Source: Eledone cirrhosa (lineage: Eukaryota). From it: a stretch of DNA of 64,000 bases. Below are positions 5,317-61,995 of this stretch, in pieces. The translations under genes and the position numbers were made by a program. The stretch covers positions 65,162,001-65,226,000 of the forward strand of contig OZ024740.1 of the NCBI GenBank assembly GCA_964016885.1, given 5' to 3'. Positions within the stretch are counted from its first letter, which is position 1. Every line of letters starts with the position of its first letter. The notes below the pieces were generated by a model. That model was not told the DNA's origin. It saw only the letters and a program-made list of their open reading frames with translations, and made no database searches.

Positions 5317-6576
5317 TAGATTCAGCGAGCATCGCATTTCGGCGGGTACGAAAGGTGAAACGAAACGAAAAAATCAGAGATGACACTGGCAAAGTGCTCA
5401 ATAGTTAAAAACCAGAGCTAAACAATGTGTTAAGAAGACATACAAAACTGAAAAAGTGGTCAAGAAAGCATTAACCAACTAAGCCAAAGCAAATCAAGCT
5501 AAATAGGTCAAAACAAAATAAATGATAAAAAATAAATGATAAACTAGAACTGGACCTTCGGAATTGCTGTTAAAATCCAATGCAGGGTTTCTATGACACT
5601 AAATCAAAATACTGTCTGCTTAAAAATATAAGCTTTGGGTATAATTATCAAACAAGGAATATCACGTTATCAACAGGTATTTTGATCCGTACCAAATATG
5701 TGAGTGACACAGAGGCAAGTTAAACCACGTGTGGAAATCACAATAGGAAATAACCCCAGATTTCGGCAAAAGAATTCACTAAGTGTATATCATGCAAAAA
5801 ATTGCATAAATAGCACAAATCGAATATTTATATATATATAGATAAATATACACGGGTGCGTATGATTGTGTATAGACGATTATATTAATAAAAGGAATTC
5901 CAACTTTGTCTGATTTATTCGTTTTATTTACAATCTTTTAAAATTTATAATGGTATTAGAATGAAATAGTATGGTAGAATATTAAATGTTAAGTGTTAAT
6001 TGAACAAGTACTTTCATGCTTTCGCAATCTTCTGGTTCATATTCTGTGGTGACAGTCAAGTTTGCAATTTTCAACTGTAATGAGATTGGTACATTTTGTG
6101 CCTTATATACAGTGAAAAGTGGCTACAGAATGCTAAATCTTGCAAACTGTATTTCGACCAATCGGTGTGTAGTTTCACTGGATTACTAAAGCTGATTGGT
6201 TTAGGCGTCACGATTGGTTGAGCATGTCTAACGCTACTATTTGACCCTATCCGAAGCATCAATTGTTTTGCTATTTTTAGAAATGATGAAAAAAGCATTT
6301 TCTAGTAATCATCACCATCAACATCACATTTATTATTATTATTGTTGTTGTTGTTGTTAGTGGTCGTAGTCATAGTCATAGTAGTATTAATACCCCATTT
6401 AGCTTGGGTTGGAATTTATCGTGTTATGGCGTATGTTGTGTTGGTGCGATTGTCCATTTTTAATGTTTTTTCTCAGTGTTCCAGAGTCTTTACCGTAATT
6501 TGCAGCATATTCGTCGAGAAATAATTGTTTCTGCTGCCATAACTTTCTTGATTTGCTTTCTTCTTTTGAGATATCT

Positions 6577-7414
6577 CTGAATTTTAAATTGTGCCATCCA
6601 CCTCATACAAATCTCAACATCCCATACTTCCTAGCCAGAAGAATTTGTACCATTGTTGAAGATTCGAATACCTGGAACAAACCCCTAACAGAACTAAGAG
6701 AATTTTTGCACAAACAAAATACCCATCTCTACTTATAGAAAATGGCATACAGCGGGCTATAAAAATACCTATACACCAACTTAGGACAACCAAGGAAGAA
6801 GAAACCAAGAAAAGGTCATACCATTTATAATGACAGACAACACATGTCACCAGAATATCTTCAACACTGCCAAATCAAACCTACCGATCATTGCTCAAAG
6901 TAATGAATTAAAAGGCTTAATCACAGATCGATCTTTGACTCTTAGTAAAAGGCAACCGAAAAATTTGAAGCAATTACTAACAAAAGATAAGTTTGAAATT
7001 AACAACAAAGACCAGTCATTCACTGTAACTAAATGCAATGATGGTCGATGTGGCACATGTCAATCCATACACACCGGTCATTATATGAAAACAAAAACTG
7101 GAATAATATTCCCAAATGCAAATATGAACTGCAAAAGCAGAAATCTAATTTACTGCATTAAATGCCCGAATTGTGAAGAACTATATGTCGGTCAAACTGG
7201 AAATGCACTATCGGAACGTGCACGGGTGCACCGACAGCAAATCAGAGACCCAAATGTCAGTCAGATATCTCTGTGTAACCATCTAGCAACATGTGCTCAG
7301 AGAATATTTATAATATTTCCATTCTACAAATTACACAGCCCAAGTGAAATCAAGAGAAAAATCAAAGAAAAGACTTTTATTGATAAATTCCAACCCAAGC
7401 TAAATGAACAATAA
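6577..7414 (+). pseudogene. PLE RT thumb, Cys-rich linker and GIY-YIG endonuclease (frameshifted)
   Basis: HPPHT..NIPY..ARRICTI; SKRQPKNLKQLLT; CNDGRCGTC; NLIYCIKCPNCEELYVGQTG..LSER..VHRQQIRD. Confidence 0.88.
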
Positions 7415-7767
7415 TAATGGGGTATTAATCTGACTATGACTATGACCACTAAAAACAACAACAATAATAATAATAAAAGTGATGTTCATGGTGATGATTA
7501 CTAGAAAATGCTATTTTCATCATTTCTAAAAATAGCAAATCAATTGATGCTTTGGATAGGGTCAAATAGTAGTCGTTAAACATGCTCAACCAACCGTGAC
7601 GCCTAAACCAATCAGCTTTAGTAATCCAGTGAAAATACACACTGATTGCTCGAAATACAGTTTGCAAGATTTAGCATTCTGGAGCCACATGTCTCTGTAT
7701 ATAAGATACAAAATGTACCCATCTCATTACAGTTGAACATTGCAAACTTGACTGTCACCACAGAATA

Positions 7768-7806
7768 TGAACCTGAAGATTGCGAAAGCATGAAAGTACT
7801 TGTTCA
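7768..7806 (+). ncRNA. Minimal type I hammerhead ribozyme motif
   Basis: TGAAC-CTGAAGA-T-TGC-GAAA-GCA-T-GAAA-GTAC-TT-GTTCA: 5-bp stem I, intact core, palindromic GTAC loop 3. The left-arm copy (6001-6040) has a mutated core CAGAAGA. Confidence 0.8.
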
Positions 7807-7940
7807 ATTAACACTTAACATTTAATATTCTACCATACTATTTCATTCTAATACCATTATACATTTTAAAGGATTGTAAATTATACGAGTAAATCAGACA
7901 AAGTTGGAATTCCTTTTATTAATATATATATATATATATA

Positions 7941-16398: not shown

Positions 16399-17821
16399 TA
16401 TACGGGGTAACAAATAATTGTTATATGCAGTCCACTTAGGTGTAGTTCCGTTATGGTACTCCGGTTAGTGGATGATATCAACGCTTGGCTAAGTTTGAAT
16501 CAACAAGGCGTTTCCATAGTGATGCTGCGAGTATACTTTAATTCCTATGTTGTAAACACTTGGAGTAATAATAAATCAGGAAAGAAGAGTGACACGGTTT
16601 GCTATACGAAAAAGGTTTTTAATCTCATTGCTGACAATTGTTTCTCTGAACTGGTAGGTCTAGAGATCGCTATCCGCTTATTTTCACGTTACTCGATCGC
16701 CAATACAAAGTTATAACCAGTCAGTTCATCGGAGCTTGCGAGAATGAAGAGAATATACAGGCATGAAAAGAATATACAGGCTACTATATGTAGTAGTAAC
16801 GGCATTCAGTTAGAACAATAACAACAATATCAACAATGCTAGCAATAAATTATTTGAAATAATCACAACATCAATCTAGGTGGGAAGTATAGTATATCTA
16901 TGATTTTAGCTTGTAAAACTAGCTGACATGAGGCAGATGTATAGAATTGACATGTAAAAACTGTCGTAGGGTGTATTATATCAAGTGTAAAGATAAGCTG
17001 GTGTTTTTAAACAATGTAGGTCAGGTGGCCGTAATAGTCAGTTTTTATCTGACCGATGAAGTATTTATCACTGTAGTGGAATTTGTGTGGTCTATATTAG
17101 ATGAGAGCGCTGTCTATCTTTCTCATCCTCAATAACATACATGTATAAGACAACACTAACAAAGCTAAATAATGGGCAAGTTAATACAGAGGTTAAGGAG
17201 GCAATATATATATATATATATATACATATATATACACACACATATGCACACAAACATATATATATACACACACACATACACATACATACATACATACAAA
17301 GAGAAAACATGCTAACTATAATTATAGCAAGAAGAAGGTAAAGTTCTGTTGTAGTAGTATCTTTAAATGTTCTTGGATTTAGGATCAAGTGATGACAGCA
17401 ACTGAGAAGAGATAAGTTTATGGGTTGATGAGGTACTTACAGACATTAGTGTGGTATAAAACTAAGAAGGCTAGAATGTACTTAATGATTATATTTCTGT
17501 GGTGATTCGTGCAGAGTAGTGGGTATCCTAGTTGAAAGCTATGTTACGTCGGTTCGATTTACGGAGGTTTAAATTTTATGAATTTAGTGGCGATCCTGTG
17601 CCTGCAGAAGATAGATCTTTCTAACTTGTTAAGTAGCCTTTTTACATTTCTAAGGATATACAGTAGTTCTAGATCACATAGCCTACAGTGTGACATACCT
17701 GTACTGTAGGTTTTAGCAGCTGATAACCTCGACCAGTTGATACTGTAGCTAGTCTTGTTGTCCTTCAGTTCCCATATTTTTTTGGCGAGAGTTGTAGAAC
17801 CCATAAGTGCACGATTTTTCA

Positions 17822-19554
17822 TCGATAGGATAATCGCACAAATAAAGGATAAACTAGAAATCAATTTATGGGGTAATACTAACGAGGCGATTGAATGGTT
17901 CAATAAAATACAAAATAGGGAGACGTGTAACTTCATACAATTTGATATAGACGACTACTATGCATCCATATTCCCAGCCACCCTAAATAAAGCGCTTATA
18001 TTTGCCCAAAATAACTCAGATGTTACCCCTGAGGAAATTGAAATAATAATAACGGCTGGAAGGACTATCATAAAATTTGAAAATAGCTACTGGGTAAGAA
18101 TAGATAGGATAAACAGCTTCGATATAACAATGGGATCAAATGACTCTGCGCAAATCACAGACATCGTGGGGCTATTCATAGCACACAACCTACATAAGGA
18201 ATTCAGTAACCTCCAAGGAGGGGTTTATAGAGACCACACGCTCCTTATAGCTAAGAACTTAAACAACCAGAGCATGGAAAGATTAAGAAAAAACATTAGA
18301 ACATTCTTTAAAAAACTGTGCCTAAGTATTACCTACGAACTGAACCATAAGAAAGTAAACTTTCTAGATGTGAGTCTAAATCTAAATACGGGATTAATAG
18401 AACCTTTCCACAAAAATAATGAAAATCTGGCCTACATTAGTTATAACTCAAACCACCCCAAATCCATAATCAAATCCATAGCACGTAGTATATCCCTTCG
18501 AATATCCCGCTTATCCTCAAACCTAGAAATCTTTAACGAACATGCTAACTATTATAACGCAAAGATAAACTGCAGTATATAGCGAATAAAGACAACGTAA
18601 ACAATCCTTATAGCAACTATACCAACCGCTCACACAAAAATAGAGGTAACTGGACTAGACATAGGGTTAGGCATGTAGCACCTAGAGTGAACGGTCAAAA
18701 CACTAATAACGTAAACCCAAGAAACAATAGAAGAATCAGAGAAAGAAAATACCTATGGTTCAACCCAATCTTCAATTCCTCTGTAAAAACCAGACTGCCT
18801 TCTACATTCTTTAAACTAATAGATAAACACTTCCCTATTTCACATAGATATCATAAAATACTCAATAGAAATACTATAAAACTCTCATACTCTACGGCAG
18901 CAAATATAGAATCGCACATACGCAAGATCAACCACAGAAATATCTCTAGGGAATCAGCCCCACCTATGCGCAACATAGCACCAAATTATAAGCATAAACA
19001 CATCACAGTATCACAACCGCAAGCACATACAAGCGCGAATCAGCAAAACCCCAACGGGCATGAATCACAACCCACTTATAGCAGAGTATTAAACAGCAGT
19101 GTAGAAGCTGCACGAAATAACACCTCAAATTGTAACTGTCACCTACCGGATAGGTGCCTATTGGCGAATAGATGCCTCGATTCGAGCTTAGTGTACATGT
19201 GTACGGTCAACTCAGACAATTCCACCTGGCATTACATTGGATCCACCGCGGCTACTTTTAAAAAAAGATGGTATGTGCACAGGCACTCGATGAAAAATCG
19301 TGCACTTATGGGTTCTACAACTCTCGCCAAAAAAATATGGGAACTGAAGGACAACAAGACTAGCTACAGTATCAACTGGTCGAGGTTGTCGGCTGCTAAA
19401 ACCTACAGTACAGTATGTCCCACTGTGGGCTATGTGATCTAGAACTACTGTATATCTTTAGAAATGTAAAAAGGCTACTTAACAACAAGTTAGAAAGATC
19501 TATCTTCTGCAGGCACAGGATCGCCACTAAATTCATAAGATTTAAACCTCCGTG
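17822..19554 (+). pseudogene. Naiad-type RT (C-terminal part) plus GIY-YIG endonuclease, frameshifted
   Basis: FIQFDIDDYYASI, ITMGSNDSAQITD, VYRDH (YRDD degenerate), VNFLDV, SNHP, WFNP, CNC..DRC....C, YIGST..FKKR, LA..IW.LK, C..C..E, CRH. Confidence 0.9.
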
Positions 19555-19873
19555 AATCGAACCGACGTAACATAGCTTTCAACTAGGATACCCACTACTC
19601 TGTACGAATCACCACAGAAATATAATCATTAAGTACATTCTAGCCTTCTTAGTTCTATACCACACTAATGTCTGTAAGTACCTCATCAACCCATAAACTT
19701 ATCTCTTCTCAGCTGCTGTCATCACTTGATCCAAAATCCAAGAACATTTCAAAATACTACTACAACAGAACTTTACCTTCCTCTTGCTATAATTATAGTC
19801 AGCATGTTTTCTCTTTGTATGTATGTATGTATTTGTATGTGTGTGTGTGTATATATATATGTTTGTGTGCATA

Positions 19874-19904
<31 letters not shown>

Positions 19905-20372
19905 TGCCTCCTTAACCTCTCTATTAACTTGCCCATTATTTAGCTTTGTTAATGTTGTCTTATAAATGTATGTTATTGAGGATGAGAAAGATAGACAGCG
20001 CTCTCATCTAATACAGACCACACAAATTCCACTACAGTGATAAAAACTTCATCGGTTAGATAAAAACCGACTATTACGGTAACCTGACCTACATTGTTTA
20101 AAAACACCAGCTTATCTTTACACTTGGTATAATACACCCTACGACAGTTTTTACATGTCAATTCTATACATCTGCCTCATGTCAGCTAGTTTTACACGCT
20201 AAAATCATAGATATACTATACTTCCCACCTAGATTGATGTTGTGATTATTTCAAATAATTTATTGCTAACATTGTTGATGTTGTCGTTATTGTTCTAACT
20301 GAATGCCATTACTACTACATATAGTAGCCTGTATATTCTTTTCATGCCTGTATATTCTCTTCATCCTCGCAA

Positions 20373-20477
20373 GCTCCGATGAACTGACTGGTTATAACTT
20401 TGTATTGGAATCGAGTAACGTGAAAATAAGCGGATAGCGATCTCTAGACCTACCAGTTCAGAGAAACAATTGTCAGC
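20373..20477 (+). ncRNA. Hammerhead-like motif with CCGAUGA core and long stem II (inverted copy at 16630-16735)
   Basis: GCT-CCGATGA-A-CTGACTGGT...ACCAGTTCAG-A-GAAA-C-AATT-GTC-AGC. Confidence 0.6.
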
Positions 20478-20527
20478 AATGAGATTAAAAACCTTTTTCG
20501 CATAGTAAACCGTGTCACTCTTCTTTC

Positions 20528-21919
<1,392 letters not shown>

Positions 21920-24260: not shown

Positions 24261-24295
<35 letters not shown>

Positions 24296-24298
24296 CAT

Positions 24299-25961
24299 AT
24301 AACGAAACGAAATTAAATTTCGTTTCGTTTGTAACTCACTTTTGTATGACTGACGCTTAAACAATTAAGTTAAAAGTGTACATCCACATATGTATACTGA
24401 AATACTAGTATGCATATAAATACACACACGTATACAAATGTACATGTACCGAGTTTTTCACTGGACACTTTACTGTGAGTGTCTAGCTAGTCTGTATGTA
24501 ACCAAATAGACAAACCGGGTTTTAGAGTCATACGGGTTTTCAAGGAAACACCTTTCCTCTATTCTTCAGAGAGCCAGACAGGAATATTGGACTAGTTTCG
24601 ATGTTATTACATCTCATCAGCAATAAAATCCCATCTTCCGGCTTCTCTAGAGAATCGTAAAAGCATATATCGTTATATGCTTTTTCTATGAAAATTAGTA
24701 GTGGGCAGACTAATTTGCATAGAACGTGAGTCATTATACGCACCGGTTCAGCGGAAACGATAAAAACAAATAACGAAATGAAATTAAATTTCGTTTCGTT
24801 TGTAACTCACTTTTGTATGACTGACGCTTAAACAATTAAGTTAAAAGTGTACATCCACATATGTATACTGAAATACTAGTATGCATATAAATACACACAC
24901 GTATACATATGTACATGTACCGAGTTTTTCACTGGACACTTTACTGTGAGTGTCTAGCTAGTCTGTATGTAACCAAACAGACAAACCGGGTTTTAGAGTC
25001 ATAACGGGTTTTCAAGGAAACACCTTTCCTCTATTCTCCAGAGAGCCAGACAGGAATATTGGACTAGTTTCGATGTTATTATTTGTTTTTATCGTTTCCG
25101 CTGAACCGGTGCGTATAATGACTCACGTTCTATGCAAATTAGTCTGCCCACTACTAATTTTCATAGAAAAAGCATATAACGATATATGCTTTTACGATTC
25201 TCTAGAGAAGCCGGAAGATGGGTTTTTATTGCTGATGAGATGTAATAACATCGAAACTAGTCCAATATTCCTGTCTGGCTCTCTGGAGAATAGAGGAATG
25301 GTGTTTCCTTGAAAACCCGTATGACTCTAAAACCCGGTTTGTCTGTTTGGTTACATACAGACTAGCTAGACACTCACAGTAAAGTGTCCAGTGAAAAACT
25401 CGGTACATGTACATATGTATACGTGTGTGTATTTATATGCATACTAGTATTTCAGTATACATATGTGGATGTACACTTTTAACTTAATTGTTTAAGCGTC
25501 AGTCATACAAAAGTGAGTTACAAACGAAACGAAATTTAATTTCGTTTCGTTATTTGTTTTTATCGTTTCCGCTGAACCGGTGCGTATAATGACTCACGTT
25601 CTATGCAAATTAGTCTGCCCACTACTAACTTTCATAGAAAAAGCATATAACGATATATGCTTTTACGATTCTCTAGAGAAGCCGGAAGATGGGTTTTCAT
25701 TGCTGATGAGATGTAATAACATCGAAACTAGTCCAATATTCCTGTCTGGCTCTCTGGAGAATAGAGGAAAGGTGTTTCCTTGAAAACCCGTATGACTCTA
25801 AAACCCGGTTTGTCTGTTTGGTTACATACAGATTAGCTAGACACTCACAGTAAAGTGTCCAGTGAAAAACTCGGTACATGTACATATGCATACGTGTGTG
25901 TATTTATATGCATACTAGTATTTCAGTATACATATGTGGATGTACACTTTTAACTTAATTG
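24299..25961. mobile_element. Retrozyme-like non-autonomous element: 471-nt HHR-containing unit, ~1.65 copies on minus (24299-25080) and ~1.9 copies on plus (25078-25961)
   Basis: Near-identical units; CTGATGA cores at 25232 and 25703 (471 apart) and at 24614-24620 on minus; no credible ORF; (TA)n flanks. Confidence 0.85.
25227..25267 (+). ncRNA. Canonical minimal type I hammerhead ribozyme (copies at 25698-25738 plus and 24585-24625 minus)
   Basis: TATTG-CTGATGA-GATGT-AATA-ACATC-GAAA-CTAG-TC-CAATA; GUC cleavage triplet; palindromic CTAG loop 3. Confidence 0.9.
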
Positions 25962-25992
25962 TATATATATATATATATATACATATATTGGT

Positions 25993-49559: not shown

Positions 49560-50100
49560 ATGGAAAACATATTATTTGCTTATATTTGCCATGAATTGTT
49601 TTTTCTTTTATTATTCCCTGTTGCTTTGCAAATAAATCCAAGCATTTGTAAAGGGGAAGGAATATGGTTTTTTTTAAAATTTGGTTCTGTTCCTTCCAGC
49701 AGATGCTGCAATATTATTACTTTAAAATATGTGTCGGCTTTCTGCATCACGGATTTATAGCATGCCTATTGTCAATTTTTCGTATCATGACACTCCGGTT
49801 TGTCCTGTGTATTTTTATATATATCCACAGCATATTTTCACATCGATTTTGTTTTCCGAATTGTAGGTGAAACTTTCTTTTACCCTAGAGGTTTAATCAT
49901 CGATAAATCTGAATTCTGGTCCTTCAATTGTAAATAAGCTGCTACGACAGTTTGTTCTTCCGCATGTTTTAGCAGCGCTGTTGGTGATTTGTTTATGTGT
50001 TTTTTTTACTCCAGTAAGTATCTTTCTAGTGTTTTGGGTTGTCTTTTACATTTGATGATATGTGGTCTTTCAAGAAACGTTTTTTATATAAATAAGATGG
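49560..50100 (-). pseudogene. Decayed Neptune-like PLE linker/GIY-YIG fragment
   Basis: IIKCKRQPKTL..YL; KTCGRTNC; YTGQTG; IRD; PLYK-like end; same layout as 6830-7414. Confidence 0.6.
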
Positions 50101-50140
<40 letters not shown>

Positions 50141-50142
<2 letters not shown>

Positions 50143-51181
50143 CCCCGAATACAATAGTTCCATTAGTACACATTTACCAGTACTCTTCTTTAAAATAATT
50201 AAAAGACATTTTCCCACATCACACAAATACCACAAAATCCTAAACCCTACCACTATAAGACTGTCATACTCTACAGCGTTAAACCTTGAACAACACATAA
50301 AAAAGATCAATACTAGAAGGTTAAACGAAAACACTAAGAACTTAAGTACAAAGAACACAAAAAAAACAGTAGACAATACACTACAGAACATAAATAAACC
50401 ACATCTAAGTTCGTCCGCAATACTACTCCAGAGAAAACCCAACGTACACAACTGTAACTGCACCTATCCTGACAACTGCCCCCTCGGCAATAACTGCCTG
50501 GAAAAAAATATTATTTATAAGTGTACCATTAAATCCGGGGGCAACGAGTGGTATTACGTGGGATCAACGGCAACATCGTTTAAATCTCGATTGTATAGGC
50601 ATTCTTACTCAATAAAACACCAGAGCCAAAGAAATGTAACAACTTTAGCAGAAAAAGCTTGGACGCTCAGGGATAGCGATCAAAAGTTTACCCTAAAATG
50701 GGAGAAATAAGCTAAAACCCAAAGCTTTTCCAGGAGCCAAAATTTCTGCAAATTGTGTAATCTTGAGATTTATTACATAATCACACACAAGAAGAAACTG
50801 CTGAATAACAGAATTGAACGAACATTATTCTGCCGTCACAGAACTAAAACCATTTTTTCCCACTACAAGCCGAATATTACATAAAAGAGGGTCATCCCCC
50901 AACTATATAAACCTTAATCTAGTTAGAAAAATATAAAAACAATCTCTTCTCAACATATATTAATAACCTTAAATTACCACACTAATAATGGAAAGATATG
51001 CTGATGAGAATAGGTGCAAATATGCGATAATGAATGTGTCTAAAAACGTCCATAAGTATGTATATATATGTGAAAATGTATATAAATAAGTAAATATATA
51101 TATATGTTTGATGTGTATAGTTAGATGTAAGTGTATTCATGTATTAAAGTGCATATATATTTATGTATATGTGTATGTATA

Positions 51182-51980: not shown

Positions 51981-52045
<65 letters not shown>

Positions 52046-52210
52046 CTAAGTACAAAATTATGATAAATGAATTAAATGAATTTAATCTAAATCGAAATCA
52101 TGGGTGTCATGACATAATGCATGCGCCATATATCCTGGGAATTTAAGCTCAAAGATAAATAAATCTGAGCATATTATAATAACAGAGATTGATTAACATA
52201 TAAAAATACA

Positions 52211-52552
52211 GTATACTAGGGAAAGGATCAGGGGTGTATAACACTCCACTTATCCAGCAGGCAGTATGAGGTTAGCTCAATGTCTGAGGACAGAGCCGTA
52301 ATATAATAAATAAATAACAAAGAACGCTTATAGCATATGCATATCTTTACTTGCTAACATTGTTTCATCCGCACTATAAGTGGGACTCATCAGAGCATAA
52401 AGGTTAATTACATACCATACAAGCAATAACAAATCCAAGACATTGAAGAATGAAAGGTAATAATAGACGATAGAGGATAAGAATAAAAATAAAAATAAAA
52501 GTAAAAATAAAAATAAAAATAAAAATAAAAATAAAAATAAAAATAATATATT
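52211..52552 (-). mobile_element. HHR-bearing insertion with apparent ~15-bp target-site duplication; HHR at 52352-52397
   Basis: ACATATAAAAA(T/C)ACA at 52196 and 52553; TGCT-CTGATGA-GTCC-CAC-TTATA-GTG-C-GGAT-GAAA-C-AAT-GTT-AGCA. Confidence 0.7.
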
Positions 52553-53273
52553 ACATATAAAAACACATGAATAATCACAGGAGATCATTTTTGCTTGCGT
52601 GTAACCGCGCATAGCTAGTTTAGGCAATATTTACCTTTAAGTGTGATTAACCTTCCTTGTATATATCCCATTAAAGAAATATATTTAACCAATTAATCAG
52701 ATGGTAAGTCAGGGAAAGTGGATATTATTGGATTGTCAACAAGGAAAGTGATAATTTCCAGCTATTCGTGCTTACAGAGCGAGATCAAATCTTCAACTAT
52801 TCGTTACCACGTGTTGCGTCCACACAAGATAGCGGTTTCGTTTCAGTGGCGTGAAAAGGTATTCGACAACTAGAAATAGCAGTCAAATTCTTTTCAACAG
52901 AAATTGCTCAACAATTAAGGAGCCGTATATATATATCTAAGTCCAAAATTAAGATAAATGAATTAAATGAATTTAATCTAAATCGAAATCATGGGTGTCA
53001 TGACATTATGCATGCGCCATATATCCTGGGAATTTAAGCTCAAAGATAAATAAATCTGAGCATATTATAATAACTAGAGATTGATTAACATATAAAAATA
53101 CATGAATAATCACAGGAGATAATTTTTGCTTGCGTGTAACCGCACATAGCTAGTTTAGGCAATATTTACCTTTAAGTGTGATTAACCTTCCTTGTATATA
53201 TCCCATTAAAGAAATATATTTCACCAATTAATCAGATGGTAAGTCACGGAAAGTGGATATTATTGACTTCCCA

Positions 53274-53465
53274 ATGGCAGGTGGATTGGCAGTATCGGTA
53301 GAGGGTCGGACGTCATGCTTTCCATCATAGTTACGTCCCTTTACGATCTGAGTTCAAATCCAGCCGAGGTTAACTTTGCCTTTCATCCTTACGGGGTCGA
53401 TAAAATAAAGTACCAGTAATGCACTGGGTAATTTCTGGCCTTGTGCTAATAGTAGAAACAATTAT
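53274..53465 (+). mobile_element. Full-length tRNA-derived SINE with target-site duplication
   Basis: TGGCAGTATCGGTAGAGG A-box, GAGTTCAAATCC B-box, core and tail; flanked by ATTATTGACTTCCCA on both sides. Confidence 0.9.
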
Positions 53466-54320
53466 TGACTTCCCATCTCATTAATTGGTGAAAGATATTT
53501 CTTTAATGGGATATATACAACGAAGGTTAATCACACTTAAAGGTAAATATTGCCTAAACTAGCTATGCGCGGTTACACGCAATCAAAAATTATCTCCTGT
53601 GGTTATTCATGTATTTTTATATGTTAATCACTCACTAGTTATTATAATATGCTCAGATTTATTTATCTTTGAGCTTAAATTCCCAGGATATATGGCGCAT
53701 GCATTATGTCATGACACCCATGATTTCGATTTAGATTAAATTCATTTAATTCATTTATCTTAATTTTGGACTTAGATATATATATATACGGCTCCTTAAT
53801 TGTTGAGCTATTTCTGTTGAAAAGAATTTGATGTTATTTCTAGTTGTCGAATACCTTTTCACGCCACTGAAACGAAACCGCTATCTTGTGTTGACGCAAC
53901 ACGTGGTAACGGATAGTTGAAGATTTGATCTCGCTCTGTAAGCACAAATAGTTGGAAATTATCACTTTCCTTGTTGACAATCCAATAATATCCACTTTCC
54001 CTGACTTACCATCTGATTAATTGTTGAAATATATTTCTTTAATGGGATATATACAAGGAAGGTTAATCACACTTAAAGGGAAATATTGCCTAAACTAGCT
54101 ATGCGCGATTACACGCAAGTAAAAATGATCTCCTGTGATTATTCATGTATTTTTATATGTTAATCAATCTCTAGTTATTATATATATATATATATATATT
54201 AGAATTGGAGCTCTGAAATAGCAATATATATATGGATGTATATATAATGTATTTTGCAATACACTTTATGCTTAATTAAAAAAAGCATAAAGTGTATTGC
54301 AAAATACATTATATATACAT

Positions 54321-55069: not shown

Positions 55070-58034
55070 ACCACATTTGTAAACACTGTACCCACAACCT
55101 CTGACCATAAAAAACTGAAAAATTTCTGGGGAACTAAATCAGAACACCCTGCCATCCCCTGCACACAATCATATACTGGAATCAAGGTACAAATTGTTGT
55201 CCTTGAATGCACGTAGTCTATGCAATAAGATTCATCTTTTTGACTCCTACGTCAAAAGTATTAACTCTGACTTCATTACAGTCACGGAAACTTGGGCACA
55301 TCCCTTACTCTGTGATGGGGTTTTCAGCATAACTGGCTAAAACCTGTTTCGTAAAGACCGCATTAATCGTGGTGGTGGTGGTGTAATGGTCTACGTTCGG
55401 TCAAATTTGTCGGCAATTCCTTGTATTGATTTGAACAAATCACAGCAGAAATTTTTTTTTCTACGATATATGTATGACCATGTCGTTTACCGTCCCCCTA
55501 ATTACCATCAGGATACTCAACTTTGTGATATCCTCAGAGCTGCTGCCAGGAAAACAGCCACTTATGTTTTTATTGCAGGAGACTTCAATCACCCTGAGAT
55601 TGACTGGGAAACCTTTCGTTGGCCGCCAAGTGCAAATTACTTCCTTGAGATAGTGCTGGACTTGAATTGGTCCCAAGTAGTCACCTCCCCAACAAGAGGT
55701 GACAACACTTGGGACCTATCCTCACCACTACTCCTGAAACGGTCATTGGTGTTACTGCTGAGGAACCTTTAGGTCACTCTGATCATGCTATGATCATTGC
55801 CAATCTATCCCTCATGGGCAGTAACAAGAACCACAACCATTCTCCAAACTGCTCACTTTGACTGGAATAAAGCCGACTCGAACTGTTACTGCACCGAACT
55901 GCAACGTCCAAACTGGCTTGAGTTCTACGACTCTGGAGATGTCAAAATTGTACATCCTGAGCTCAATATGGACAGCATGTGCAGCATCGGGGCCACATAA
56001 GCGGAAACAACATCCCAAAAGTGCAATTTGGAAGACTGCAGCAGTCCGTCTTGCTAGAAAAGAATGTCGCAATGCTGAACGTGAGTACAAACTGCACAAA
56101 TCAGACATCAATAGGAAGAGGCGAAATAAATCGTCCAACCACCTCAAACAGGTGACAAAAATGGCAGTGCCTCAATTCGAGCAGCGCATAGCAACCAGCC
56201 CTGACAGTAAGGTGTTCTGGAAGTATGTTCACTCAAATCAGAGGCCTCACTCTCCAGTTTGTCTTCTTCACAATTCCCACACAAGGTTACTGACGACCCC
56301 AAGGAATGCACAGAGCTCATTGCTGAATGCTATGCAAGCATTTTCACTATTGAATACTAGAGTGTACCGTCTCCACCACCTATGACACAGGACTCTATTA
56401 CAACCTAGGAATTTACACATGCAATGCTGCGACGTCACCTAAAAAATATACGCGACCATGCCTCTCCTGGTCCTGATGGTGTTACGTACCTGCTTCTTAA
56501 ACGTGGTGGGGACTTACTTCTGCACCAGCTATCACGCTTCTTTCAATTCTGTCTGAACAACGGTGCTACTCCAGAACAGTGGAAAACTGCCAGTGTCATT
56601 CCTCCGTTCAAAAAGGTTGACCGCACATCACCTGCGACCTATCGTCCAGGCAGTCTTACTAGTTGCATTGCCAAACTGATGGAATCCTGTGTCAGAGAAA
56701 CACTTTGGAATTTCTGGAACTCTCAGTCTTATCTGGCCCTCGCAATTTGGATTTATCCCCAACTCCAGCTGCTGTGATCAACTTATAGAGTTTCTTGAAG
56801 ACATCACCCGGATCACTGATCGCGGTTCATGGGTGGATGTTGTTTACCTTGACTTTGCGAAAGCTTTAAATTCTGGGCCACACAAAAGTCCTTCATTCTC
56901 AGTCGAAGAGAAGTAGTCACGGTTCTGGGACAGCATTCCTCACCATATGTGATGTCATCTGGTGTACCACAGAGATCTGTTCTTGGCCCCCTTTTGTTTG
57001 TGGCATATATTAATGACATAGATGCCAACTTAAAGAATGCCACAGTACTAAAGTACGCAGATGACATCAAGCTGTACCTTGAGATAAAAAGGACAGATCC
57101 TGAACACTATAGATCTTGCTTGCAGTCTGACCTGGACACAATGCAACAATGGATCTCGGACTGGCAACTCAAGCTAGCTGTGGAGAAGTACACCACCATG
57201 CATTTTGGGAGTAAAGACCCAGCATCCACATACTCTCGCCACAGCACTAATATCAAGAAGTCTTCTTGTGAACGTGACCTGGGCATTACGGTCAGCAGCA
57301 ATTTGCGTTGGACGAAGTACGTCTCTAAAATTGTCAAGAGGGCCGAGGGTGTCTTAGCATCACTCAGCAAGACCTTTGTCAGCCGCTCTCCAGCTATCTA
57401 TTTAAGGCTGTACATGGCTATGGTGCGGCCACACTTAGAACTTGATTCACCAGTCTGGAACCCCTATCTTGCTCAGAACATTCACCGCCTGGAAACTGTT
57501 CAGAGACGTGCAACCAAGTGAATACCCTCCACCAGGCATCTACCATACTCTGAACGCCTTGTTTCCCTGGCCATGGATACATTGAAGTAACGACGCCTGG
57601 TAACTGACGTGGTAAACACCCACAAAATTGTTAACCATCTTGCCAACAACAACCCTGAGTACCTTTTTGATTTCCATGTGTCTAATACACGTGGGCATGC
57701 CCACAAAGTCAGAAAACAGCACAGTTGCCATGACTTTCGGAAGCAATTTTTCACGCTCAGAGTTGCTGAAGCATGGAACAAACTACCTGCATCAGTTGTT
57801 AGCTGTCGAGCCACTGCATCCTTTAAAACCTCCATGCTTCCCGAGATACGCCAACACTACACCTAATGTTCCCCCTCCATACACATATACACATGTATAT
57901 CATGACTCATACACTCTTCACTTATCTGACATTTGTATATTATTCTATGTAATATACATGCACATTTGACGAGTTGTAGTGCACCTGAGCACTTTACACA
58001 ATAATTTCATTATTATTATTATTATTATTATTAT
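55070..58034 (+). mobile_element. CR1-clade LINE ORF2 (APE endonuclease plus RT), decayed, with (ATT)n tail
   Basis: LNARSL.NK, VTETW, RKDR..RGGGGVMVYV, VYRPP, AGDFNHP.IDW, SDH, SPGPDG, SQFGF, YLDFAKA, SGVPQ.SVLGPLLF..YIND, KYADD, VRPHLE..SPVWNPY; several frameshifts and deletions. Confidence 0.92.
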
Positions 58035-61000
58035 TTGCATTTATCTTGCTTTATGTTTATACGAGTTATCACCAAGTCACAACCAGTGACCTCAAGAGAC
58101 AACAAGGTCCGCCATGTTCAAGAAAGAACACACATATTCACACATGCATCCTTAGTGTTTAGACTTGTGATGTACTTATATTGACAGGATCTTCCTTAGT
58201 ATATGGGCAGTTCCCATTAGTACTATCTTTTGTATTTCTCCTATACGCGGGTTTCCTGGGATTTGCGATAAGTAGTCGTTAGACCCCTTAGGTATCATTC
58301 CCAGAGCGCCTACAACCACTGGTATTGTTTTAGTTCTCAATTTCCACATTTTTCCAATTTCTATCTCCAGGTACTTATACTTGCTCAATTTTTCAAATGT
58401 TTTTTATAGATACATTCTTGTCTATTGGAACAGACATATCAATTAGCAGGCATACCCTCCTTTGAAAGTCCTTCAATATTATATCAGGTCTATTTGCATC
58501 TATTTTTCGGTCTGTTTGGATGCTAAAGTTCCACAAGATTGAGATGTGATCTTTTTCAAGTATGGGAGGTGGTTGATGCTCCCACCAATTCTTTTGATGG
58601 GGCAGGTCAAAATGCTTACACATTATCCAATGTATGTATTGTGCAGCTCTGTCATGCCTGTTTAGGTATTCGGTTGGAGCTATAGGACTGCACATTGAAA
58701 TTATATGGTCAATGGTCTCTGGTTGTTTTTTGCATACACGGCATAATGGGCTGCACCCATTTTTTATTATGTTGGCTTGGTAATTTTTTGTTGGCAGACA
58801 CTGATCTTGTGCCGATATAATCAGTCCTTCAGTCTCCGATTTTAGTCCAGAGGATGCCAACCACTGATGGGTTAAAATTTTGTCAACATCAGGATTGTTA
58901 GCTCGCTCTGGGTATTTTCCATACAGAGGCTTTTCTTGCCATTTCTTAGCCAGTTTCTGTAGCAGTTCTTTCTTTGCAGTTACTTTTAACTGCTTTGCTT
59001 TTTCTGTGTTTTCCATTTCAGCAGTAAATGGGACTTCTGAAATTTGTAGTCCATTACTGTATCTTTGTGCATCTTTTGTAATGGAATATGATCTTTTGGT
59101 GCTTTCGTGTTTCAAAACGAGTTTGATCATCCAATCATGTGATTCCCTTAGATATGTGGATAATCCAATTGTTGCAGTTTTCAACGCAATGTCTAACTGG
59201 ATTAACCCACGTCCTCCTTCTTTCCTAGGGAGATATATTCTATCTATGTCTGCCTTAGGGTGATGCATTCTGTGCATGGTTAAGAATTTTCGGATTTTTG
59301 TATCGAGCCTACGGATCTCTGTGCTTGACCAGTTGATGACATTGTAACTGTAGGTTACTACTGGTATGGCAAGCGTGTTTATGGCATCGATCCTATTCCT
59401 TGCATTCAATTCCGTTCTTAAGATTGCACTGACTCTGCGGTAACATTCCTTCCTTATCCTTTCCCTCATTGTCGAGTGCTTGATTCCGTCTCCTTCACAA
59501 ACACCTAGATATTTGTAAGTTTGTTCTTGATCAAGCTCCTTTATCACGTTCCCCCGATCAAGATTAATGTCTGAACTCTTCAGCAGCTTTCCTCTGGTGA
59601 ACGTTGCTTTGGCGCATTTATCCAGTCCAAACTCCATTTTAATGTCATCACTGAACTGCTTCACAGTGGATAATAGCCCTTGCAATTGTTCATCATTTTT
59701 TGCAAATAGTTTCAGGTCATCCATGTAGAACAGGTGATTAATGGTTTTGTCATAGACTCTATATCCATGTTTTGTTTCATTGAGCATTTTACTTAATGGT
59801 ATAAGTGCGATGCAGAATAAAAGCGGTGATAAAGAGTCACCCTGAAAAATTCCACAATTAATGTTAACTTCTCCAGCTTCCAGTGATTTTGTTTCACTAT
59901 TCAAAAGGAGTGTCGTTCTCCATGTCCTCATACTGAATGACAAAAAAACCTCCTGACAACGGGGGATATTTTGAAAATCTCTAAACATTTTTCAATCCAA
60001 CTGTGTGGCAAACTATCAAATGCTTTTTTATAATCTATCCAAGCAATCGATAGATTTTTGTGTCTATTATGACAATCTTCCAGTATCATTTTGTTAACCA
60101 GAAGCTGATCCTTACAGCCATATGAGCCTCGTTTACACCCTTTCTGCTCAATGGGAAATAGGTCATTTGTTATCAGGTAGTCATATGTGTATTCAGTTAG
60201 GACTGATGTTAAAATTTTATACATTGTGGTCAAGCAGGTTATCGGTCTGTAATTTTTGGGATTGTTTGTCTCATCATTCTTCGGTAGCAGGAATGTAATG
60301 CCGTTAACTAGCCATGATGGTATCTTTTCTGGCTCCTTAACTATTTCATTGTAAAGTTGGGCTAATAGCTCATGAGACTCTGTGAAGGCATTTATCCAAA
60401 AGTTTTGTATTTTGTCTTTTCCTGGGGATTTCCATTTGCTGGTTTTTCTTAGAGCCAAGCGCAGCTGTTCAACTGTTATATTTTCCCATGTTTGTTCTTC
60501 AAGGTGAGCTGTTTCTTTCATTTGTCTGTCTATCCATGGGGCATGTATGTTATGAACTTTTTCTTCGGCCCAGATCTTTTCCCAGAATTCTTGCACTTCC
60601 TCCTTGGGTGGTATTGATTTAGCAGTTATTGTTGACTTACCAATTTTTCTGTAGAAGTTTCTTTGGTTGTTTTTGAACATATTATTGTCCTTATAGAATC
60701 TAGATCGTTTTTCAAAGCGCCTTATACGAGCAGCTTTGGCCGACACTTTTTGCTTGATTGTTTCTATCAGCATGTCTATGTCACATGTTGATCTTATACT
60801 GTCCTTTTTTTTCAATTTTCTAAGTTTAGTTTGTTTTACATGTTCACCTACTTTATAGTTTGTTAAAATTTCTATGTCAGATCGGAGAAGGTTTATTTGG
60901 CGATTGATGTTATCTTGCCAAGTAGATTTCTTGTGGGAATTCCTTTGTTTTTTCATCTTCACTCCACATAAGTGAGTGGTGACTTTAGCCGATGCATAAT

Positions 61001-61995
61001 AGAGATGATTTAAGTCAGTAATGTTTAGTTTGTTTGTGATGATAATGTTTTTGAGAATTATGTTAGTCTTGTGTATTATCTTTTGGTTCTGTTTGGAGTT
61101 CTGGATCTTAGGGAGGGTGTCTCGTTCCCCCATGTCAGATTCTTTCATTTTCATCCATTCGATCATAATTTCATCCTTCAAGTTGGCAAGTTCATTCTCA
61201 TTCATTTCTTTATCATTTACGATCTCATTATTTTCATTTGGAGTTTCATCCTGAGCATGCACTCCCTCCACTTTTTCGCTCCTTTCTTTAATTTGTTCTG
61301 TTGCCAGTGATTCCGCCCCAACTCTGGGATTCGAAGTGTTACAGTTTACCTCGTTTTCACTGACACATGCTTCATTTTCCCTTCGCTGACTTTGTGCTAC
61401 TAGCTTGATCTGATCAATTTCTATATCAGTTAGTAACTTTTTTCTTACAATATTTCTTCGTATATTGGCTAGTTTGTTACTGTCAATATAGCCTCTGTTT
61501 TCGGGATGTTTCTTTTTCCAGTTGATATATGTTTGCTCTGTATTCGATGTATTTGATGGGTAGTACATGGCAGTGTAGAAAGCCTCAAGGACTTCTTTAT
61601 TATCTTCCCTTGACCATTTTTCTCTCTTTTTCTTTGGATTTCTTGGTGGTGAGCATGGAGGGCCAACAGTAGGAGTATTCCGGTTATGGGAGGTCTCCAG
61701 CTCCGAAGTGATGGGAAGGTTTGAACCATTAGCTGATTTTTCGACCCCAGTCTGGTTCCTCTCTGAGGGACGCGGCCCTTTTTTACCCGGGTGACGGCCG
61801 ATCCGGTATGAGATTTCATCATTAGACATCTACTTTATTTTGTCGCGTTTTATCCTTATCCGCCAAGGGGTAATCATTTCGTGTTACCACTTCTAGAACG
61901 AGTGTCAACCAAGACTAGAGGGGTCGTTCTCCCCTAGAGACATGGCTATTCCCCGCCGGCCGCCATCCCGGTATTTCTTGGTCACGGGGTTTTCT
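58035..61995 (-). mobile_element. Near full-length R4/Dong-clade RLE non-LTR retrotransposon
   Basis: Single ORF 61829->58176 in three pieces; 3' end runs into (TAA)n; ~165-nt structured 5' UTR. Confidence 0.9.
58176..61829 (-). pseudogene. RT plus CCHC zinc knuckle plus restriction-like endonuclease polyprotein, two frameshifts (~59945, ~58393)
   Basis: Myb-like KW...DN.E...AFY; KSPG.D; NYRPITCL; EQKGC; WIDYKKAFDS.PH; GIFQGDSLSPLLF; YMDDLK; YKYLG; CRVC....ETIDHI...C; RHD; RPDI; KY..L; frameshifts lie at homopolymer runs. Confidence 0.9.

Follow-up and report, generated by a model that had tools for sequence, protein, structure and literature searches.

A dispersed non-coding 535-nt repeat in Eledone cirrhosa with a predicted U3-A8 type I hammerhead and a Penelope-type insertion footprint

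What kind of element occupies positions 52043..54180 of the 64-kb stretch of the Eledone cirrhosa genome analysed here (64,000 nt of contig OZ024740.1; hereafter the window), and how did it get there? In a preliminary description, it was taken for an array of tandem and inverted units without open reading frame, built like a neighbouring retrozyme array but with only a degenerate hammerhead-like junction. Based on the results below, we consider it probable that the locus arose by a single insertion of a non-coding 535-nt repeat that is abundant in the genome. The repeat carries a U3-A8 type I hammerhead predicted to cut, and a borrowed reverse transcriptase-endonuclease of Penelope type has likely copied it into TA microsatellites.

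The region consists of two back-to-back divergent arms of an ORF-less unit with (TA)n on both outer sides (Table 1). On the minus strand, the left arm extends from approx. 53264 down to 52035; the right arm occupies 53466 to 54187 on the plus strand. Most of the anatomy given in the preliminary description was confirmed: the tandem period is 535-536 nt (given as approx. 536 nt), the arms are inverted and each runs into (TA)n, CUGANGA is absent from the unit, and a 46-nt motif quoted there is present four times. The unit has no frame of at least 100 aa, and the sole frame in the span (52328-52630) covers a nested insert. What had been overlooked is a complete U3-A8 hammerhead and two nested insertions. 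One of these, a fragment of another repeat family (1,631 candidates; matches listed are 99-100% identical), is surrounded by a duplication of approx. 14 nt of the 535-nt unit; the other is a SINE-like repeat with several 80-91% identical copies elsewhere within the window. Both complete hammerheads of the locus carry damaging private changes, which are likely disabling; the left-arm copy is predicted to be dead because G12 is replaced by U. The two inner hammerhead copies lost their core at the inversion. Outside the element, a near-perfect short palindrome lies between TA runs at 54244-54312, with weak Rfam microRNA matches far under the gathering scores.

Table 1. Features of the locus, with positions counted from the first nucleotide of the window.
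Feature	Positions	Strand	Basis or remark
(TA)n target, left flank	51981..52045		Sequence
Left arm, outer piece (unit positions 145-323)	52035..52210	-	Outer limit at fixed end site 2 (+271 nt past the predicted cut, counted in unit positions)
Nested end fragment of another young repeat family, 342 nt	52211..52552	-	Foreign to the 535-nt unit; canonical minimal hammerhead, CUGAUGA 52393-52387 (-), predicted cut after 52356
Left arm, approx. 1.3 units, 5'-truncated at the inversion point	52553..53264	-	Unit comparison
Quoted motif, first copy: hairpin, CUAGCUAU linker, start of second hairpin; non-hammerhead	52603..52648	-	Sequence and fold; starts at 52648
Complete type I hammerhead, U3-A8 core 52739-52733	52652..52748	-	G12 to U at 52687
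Quoted motif, second copy	53138..53183	-	Sequence match; starts at 53183
Hammerhead 3' half, core removed by the inversion junction	53187..53264	-	Predicted cut site 53195
SINE-like repeat, 187 nt, at the inversion junction	53274..53460		15-bp duplication 53259-53273 / 53461-53475
Right arm, 1.35 units	53466..54187	+	Outer limit at fixed end site 1 (+133 nt past the predicted cut)
Hammerhead 3' half without core	53466..53525	+	Predicted cut after 53517
Quoted motif, third copy	53529..53574	+	Sequence match; starts at 53529
Complete type I hammerhead	53965..54061	+	Stem I 53965-53973/54054-54061; core UUGACAA 53974-53980; stem II and insert 53981-54025; GAAA 54026-54029; 9-bp stem III 54029-54052; predicted cut after A54053; first stem II pair lost through a private G-to-T at 54024
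Quoted motif, fourth copy	54065..54110	+	Sequence match; starts at 54065
(TA)n target, right flank	54178..54201		Sequence

Copies of the unit are scattered over the 3.0-Gb genome, where scoring 40 of 1,995 candidates gave 157 matches; this dispersal speaks against a single-locus duplication. In total, the non-coding repeat is present in well over a thousand copies. Sister subfamilies have units of approx. 534 nt (C), 568 nt (B; 3,320 candidates) and 548 nt (D), the labels A-D being those of this analysis, and identity between single subfamily representatives is 71-90% in the aligned columns. When 155-nt segments are compared, the difference is 2.3% within the same arm, 3.5% between opposite arms and 7.0% between loci, but the nearest neighbour of a segment lies in its own locus in only 29 of 49 cases. 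One insertion recurs in at least four copies at a spacing of approx. 5 kb, apparently inside a larger tandem duplication (loci L036 and L037).

Although the family had been described as having only a degenerate hammerhead-like junction, a compensated U3-A8 hammerhead lies directly upstream of the quoted motif and ends 3 nt before it. It is composed of a stem I of 7-10 bp, the core UUGACAA, a U-U mismatch, a stem II of 2-5 bp enclosing approx. 35 nt, GAAA, a 9-bp stem III, UA and the 3' strand of stem I. The core elements of the type I hammerhead are present, i.e., UUGANAA (U3-A8) or CUGAAGA, GAAA and the UA triplet; subfamily D has the canonical CUGAAGA in the identical frame. A search for CUGANGA and Rfam both miss this hammerhead because its core is UUGANAA. 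The hammerhead is predicted to cut the unit RNA after the AUA triplet.

Exact patterns matched genome-wide 1,602 times for U3-A8, 156 times for C3-G8 and 26 times each for the mismatched combinations C3/A8 and U3/G8, and the reversed controls gave 0 matches each. The Watson-Crick 3:8 pair is kept in 1,758 of the 1,810 exact matches, a covariation which reflects few lineage events among related copies rather than 1,810 independent ones, and core position 7 takes A, C, G and T. For an alignment, one copy per locus and at most 16 per subfamily were taken, giving 47 copies of three subfamilies (16 A, 15 B, 16 D); the selecting pattern itself fixes much of the core and of stem III. In this alignment, 96.4% of cells pair, compared to 33-55% in controls with slid partners. 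It excludes seven copies retrieved for U3/G8 and a B copy truncated on its 5' side. The 3:8 pair is U-A in 31 of the aligned copies, C-G in 15 and unpaired in one. Helices I and III, with 93.6% and 99.3% of cells paired, are seen in the lowest-energy folds and in the RNAalifold consensus; changes in stem III are mostly from G-U to A-U, plus one double change. Helix II is weak: 94% of cells pair over the 4 bp beyond the U-U mismatch, no two-sided change occurs among the 47 copies, and the RNAalifold consensus did not recover this stem.

A general type I descriptor (stem I at least 4, stem II at least 2, stem III at least 4), written after the motif had been seen, matches three of three real units versus 0, 2 and 3 of 2,000 shuffles. 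A strict descriptor matches B and D and misses the A copy used, which has a private change in stem III. Rfam detected no hammerhead in the window, the element or two intact copies. Since canonical minimal hammerheads in the window were missed as well at the gathering threshold, this negative result weighs little; the assignment consequently rests on our own descriptor. With a narrow pattern for canonical-core relatives carrying another stem I, four matches were found, all of the known C3-G8 type, and the exact stem III pattern had 0 matches in metagenome contigs. Elsewhere in the window, hammerhead-like motifs at 7773 (+), 21986 (-), 26257 (-) and 36962 (-) have a common U-U mismatch at the helix II base, and two of them have the same UCC...GGU as the 535-nt unit family.

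The predicted folding of the hammerhead raises the question of its activity. In the lowest-energy fold of A and B, U3 pairs with A17, and G12-A13 are hidden in a UUACCA/UGGUGA hairpin; this fold lies approx. 3-4 kcal/mol below the one with the core held open, and the rival hairpin of the helix II insert is thereby predicted to hide the GAA. Such sequestration would suit an account in which the same element is mobilised by Penelope-type proteins while its hammerhead is vestigial or nearly silent, uncut multimeric transcripts serving as template. The earlier idea of a ribozyme-dead but mobile derivative is here transferred to a real ribozyme. Consistent with it, hammerhead mutants of the anole Poseidon element are described as still inserting in vitro, cleavage being dispensable in that assay (PMC11167929), and the mismatched sub-lineages have spread a little: 12 of the 26 C3/A8 matches have one diagnostic stretch in common (7 loci), and 7 of the 26 U3/G8 matches another one (6 loci), which suggests a few rounds of mobility with a weak ribozyme. 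However, these mismatched lineages remained small, and the core is kept across subfamilies that are otherwise so diverged, with position 7 free and the 3:8 pair compensated. Further, natural U3-A8 hammerheads are stated to be active in vitro (PMC3088659). We therefore regard a vestigial hammerhead as a serious yet rather unlikely account, and prefer a hammerhead that cuts.

The quoted 46-nt motif itself had been read as a degenerate hammerhead or, alternatively, as an unrecognised self-cleaving RNA. In favour of this, the motif has a hairpin whose GGUA/UACC base is conserved, and the CUAG behind this hairpin is conserved too, which resembles GAAACUAGUC in the neighbouring retrozyme. However, the letters resembling a core vary: CUUAAA is changed to UUAUAA in B and to UUUUUUAAAA in D (a U-run plus AAAA), and UAAA is found in 28 of 54 subfamily A copies, next to UAUA in 25 and UAUU in one, and is replaced by CAAA in 11 of 12 C copies and by UAC in B and D. 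While the base of the hairpin is kept, its inside measures 5, 13, 34 or 32 nt depending on the subfamily. The supposed 3' strand of stem I is half of a separate hairpin, GYGYG-NUUA-CACRC (GCGUG/CACGC in A and C, GUGUG/CACAC in B and D), in which the sub-lineage of the window has one C-A mismatch. Folding of the motif gave a z of 0.11, with 108 of 200 shuffles as good, and showed no three-way junction. Neither a hammerhead nor twister, twister-sister, pistol, hatchet or HDV-like ribozymes were matched by Rfam in the element or in two intact copies at E up to 10. Since a proper hammerhead adjoins, no ribozyme is needed in the quoted motif; judging from these comparisons, such a reading is very improbable and already largely refuted. 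A larger three-way junction around the motif, closed by UAAUCA/UGAUUA, was considered and dropped because the covariation from UGAUUA/UAAUCA to UGAUUG/CAAUCA favours a downstream hairpin. What is conserved around the motif are two hairpins joined by CUAGCUAU, beginning 12 nt past the predicted cut. The motif lies in the stretch that separates the predicted cut from the first insertion end, which is where Poseidon has its required RNA region (PMC11167929), and it may, as also proposed in the preliminary description, be an RT-recognition motif.

Hints of how the repeat spread come from its insertion ends. Measured from the predicted cut, the arms end at +133 or +271 in A, at +157 or +299 in B and at +170 or +283 in D. 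One end lies at each fixed site (within 4 nt) in 44 of 63 divergent-arm rows (18/27, 14/18, 12/18), which were derived from 90 loci, with a few rows repeating one locus and with the A and B loci chosen by full-unit matches. In two of the other 19 rows, both ends fall on the same site; the remainder are truncated or interrupted. Inner arm starts are scattered, and the longest arm reaches 1,568 nt, i.e., nearly three units; arms exceeding one unit would fit multimeric linear RNA as well as a circle. As for non-autonomous Penelope-like elements, we find partial tandems together with an inverted 5'-truncated arm, a "tail" in the form of two alternative ends, and microsatellite or AT-rich targets, the insertions of the family being flanked by (TA)n. 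According to PMC11167929, the protein of Poseidon acts on AT-rich DNA, where it cuts and extends both strands, and two internal RNA start sites for reverse transcription downstream of the hammerhead give the tail; PMC8557442 likewise describes partial tandems, inverted truncated copies, tails and a (TA)n bias. In terms of sequence, the two fixed ends downstream of the predicted cut thus appear as the Penelope tail signature. Because one arm ends at each fixed site, we class the 535-nt repeat as a non-autonomous Penelope-type element (animal non-LTR retrozyme), which by this analogy was likely inserted by the enzyme of a Penelope-type retrotransposon. This agrees with the earlier proposal of a dispersed, mobilised element that shares its architecture and class with the neighbouring retrozyme array. 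The tandem and inverted copies, with arms resembling terminal inverted repeats, might also suggest a local duplication of DNA, a satellite or a MITE-like DNA element. These alternatives are refuted by the dispersal over many contigs and by the end structure: the inverted arms lie inside, vary and are truncated at random, and the two outer ends fall at different unit positions.

A potential donor of the enzyme was searched for in the genome. Open frames of 775 aa combining reverse transcriptase (RT) and GIY-YIG are present, and the inspected copies run into (TA)n; the minimal hammerhead of this abundant autonomous family shows the U-U feature as well, and its RT motif is reminiscent of the Neptune clade. 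At the loci of this one family searched, the unit matched only at a neighbouring unit array, in one partial match and in short AT-rich stretches. No sequence is common to the units and the Penelope-type remnants of the window or six 8-10-kb loci, and a comparison of five window proteins with 161 loci yielded no autonomous element sharing unit sequence. At five loci, adjacent fragments of an RT or endonuclease were interpreted as nested insertions. In a single case (locus L098, 1456-2290), a Penelope-type RT fragment is joined directly and on the same strand to a subfamily D unit, possibly by a template switch or by a deletion between nested elements.

Several other repeats of the window and genome were noted alongside. 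The window sequence 5881-7926 (loci L197-L202) is a remnant of the abundant autonomous Penelope-type family, for which 29,693 candidates were seen at first look and many copies of which keep the 775-aa frame with RT and GIY-YIG, the minimal hammerhead and (TA)n targets. Broken Penelope-type elements with another RT type and inverted arms lie at 16571-20536 and 50096-50710; they had no Pfam match at E 0.001. At 24292-25965, a two-armed 471-nt repeat is located in (TA)n, with canonical minimal hammerhead cores at 25232 (+), 25703 (+) and 24620 (-) and two different outer ends, a footprint like that of the 535-nt family. The family of the nested fragment 52211-52552 (loci L077-L087 and L118-L121) is very young, with 99-100% identical matches and a canonical hammerhead; four 10-kb loci have paired inverted hammerheads 1.4-3 kb apart, with no Penelope-type frame of 200 aa apparent. 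Finally, LINE-type RT remnants with RVT_1 matches in three frames lie at 58393-61829 (-) and 55341-57521 (+).

For the 535-nt family, we infer from these observations a cycle of expression, cleavage, possible circularisation and mobilisation by a partner protein. A tandem copy of the unit would be transcribed, and hammerheads one unit apart would cut after the AUA triplet to release a monomer, which may close to a circle. A Penelope-type protein would then bind the hairpin-rich stretch 3' of the cut, the quoted motif included, and nick both strands of a (TA)n target. The two DNA ends would prime at the internal RNA sites +133 and +271 nt, one each, giving cDNAs of variable length, sometimes longer than one unit, which would be joined back to back. 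At the copy studied here, two nested insertions and point changes likely disabled both complete hammerheads later on.

A further, tentative reading would treat the hammerhead as a switch. The helix II insert and the U3-A17 pair might hold it off until a Penelope protein or a second unit refolds it, such muting might have let U3-A8 outnumber C3-G8 approx. 10:1, and the hairpins between the cut and +133, including the quoted motif, might form the protein-binding site that sets the two primers 138 nt apart. As a whole, we think this reading doubtful.

The results turn a supposedly ribozyme-less element into a family with at least 1,600 intact-looking hammerhead motifs. Since CUGANGA descriptors and Rfam miss this family, retrozyme counts in such genomes are underestimates. 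Further, C3-G8, U3-A8 and two small mismatched lineages form a natural series in one backbone, which bears on whether cleavage matters for Penelope-type transposition, and the strict rule of one end per site offers a clean readout of two-site priming.

How does the family compare with known systems? An ORF-less tandem unit, one type I hammerhead per unit and many dispersed copies are all present, and judging by the features that can be tested in sequence, the 535-nt family belongs to the animal non-LTR retrozymes. These are described as ORF-less, AT-rich tandems with one type I hammerhead per unit and thousands of dispersed copies (PMC7229834; bioRxiv 10.64898/2026.07.22.740005), and the latter preprint treats them as non-autonomous Penelope derivatives. 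The U-U mismatch at the helix II base is found in the axolotl HHR_Amex2 as well, which is reported to cleave weakly as a monomer (PMC7229834). In contrast to the 170-400-nt circles of the animal non-LTR retrozymes studied, the unit measures 535-568 nt, yet this falls inside the range of 51-972 bp given in the preprint. Also different from them are the U3-A8 core, the 9-bp helix III, the approx. 35-nt helix II insert and the two-armed insertions with two fixed ends; moreover, those retrozymes were studied as circles, whereas the 535-nt family is known here from its sequence.

The compensated U3-A8 core swap and the Penelope-type context are shared with the Cercyon Penelope-like hammerheads of Schistosoma mansoni, among which U3-A8 is reported for approx. 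1,300 Schistosoma Penelope hammerheads (PMC4209133), and the core swap with natural variants (PMC3088659). However, the Cercyon hammerheads are described as minimal, without a stable helix III and mostly single, whereas the 535-nt family has a full helix III and tandem non-coding units. PMC4209133 describes a large helix III in elements of fungi and protists and does not present it as typical of animals. For U3-A8 in retrozymes, the literature found comprises PMC4209133 and general papers; it is no proof of absence, and figure supplements of PMC4209133 and of the preprint may show similar long-helix motifs.

The family also resembles EN+ Penelope-like elements, namely Poseidon PAc (PMC11167929) as well as Neptune, Naiad and the non-autonomous Chlamys (PMC8557442). 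In both, tandems are partial, one arm is inverted and 5'-truncated, a tail distinguishes the two ends, the targets are microsatellites or AT-rich, and a hammerhead lies upstream of the start sites. Unlike these elements as described there, the family has no ORF, and its tail spans 113-142 nt compared to 30-40 nt; Naiads are characterised in PMC8557442 as being without canonical hammerheads, whereas the 535-nt family has one. Thus, the class, the U3-A8 core variant and the footprint have each been described already, and what is uncommon in the 535-nt family is its 9-bp helix III together with a helix II insert of approx. 35 nt.
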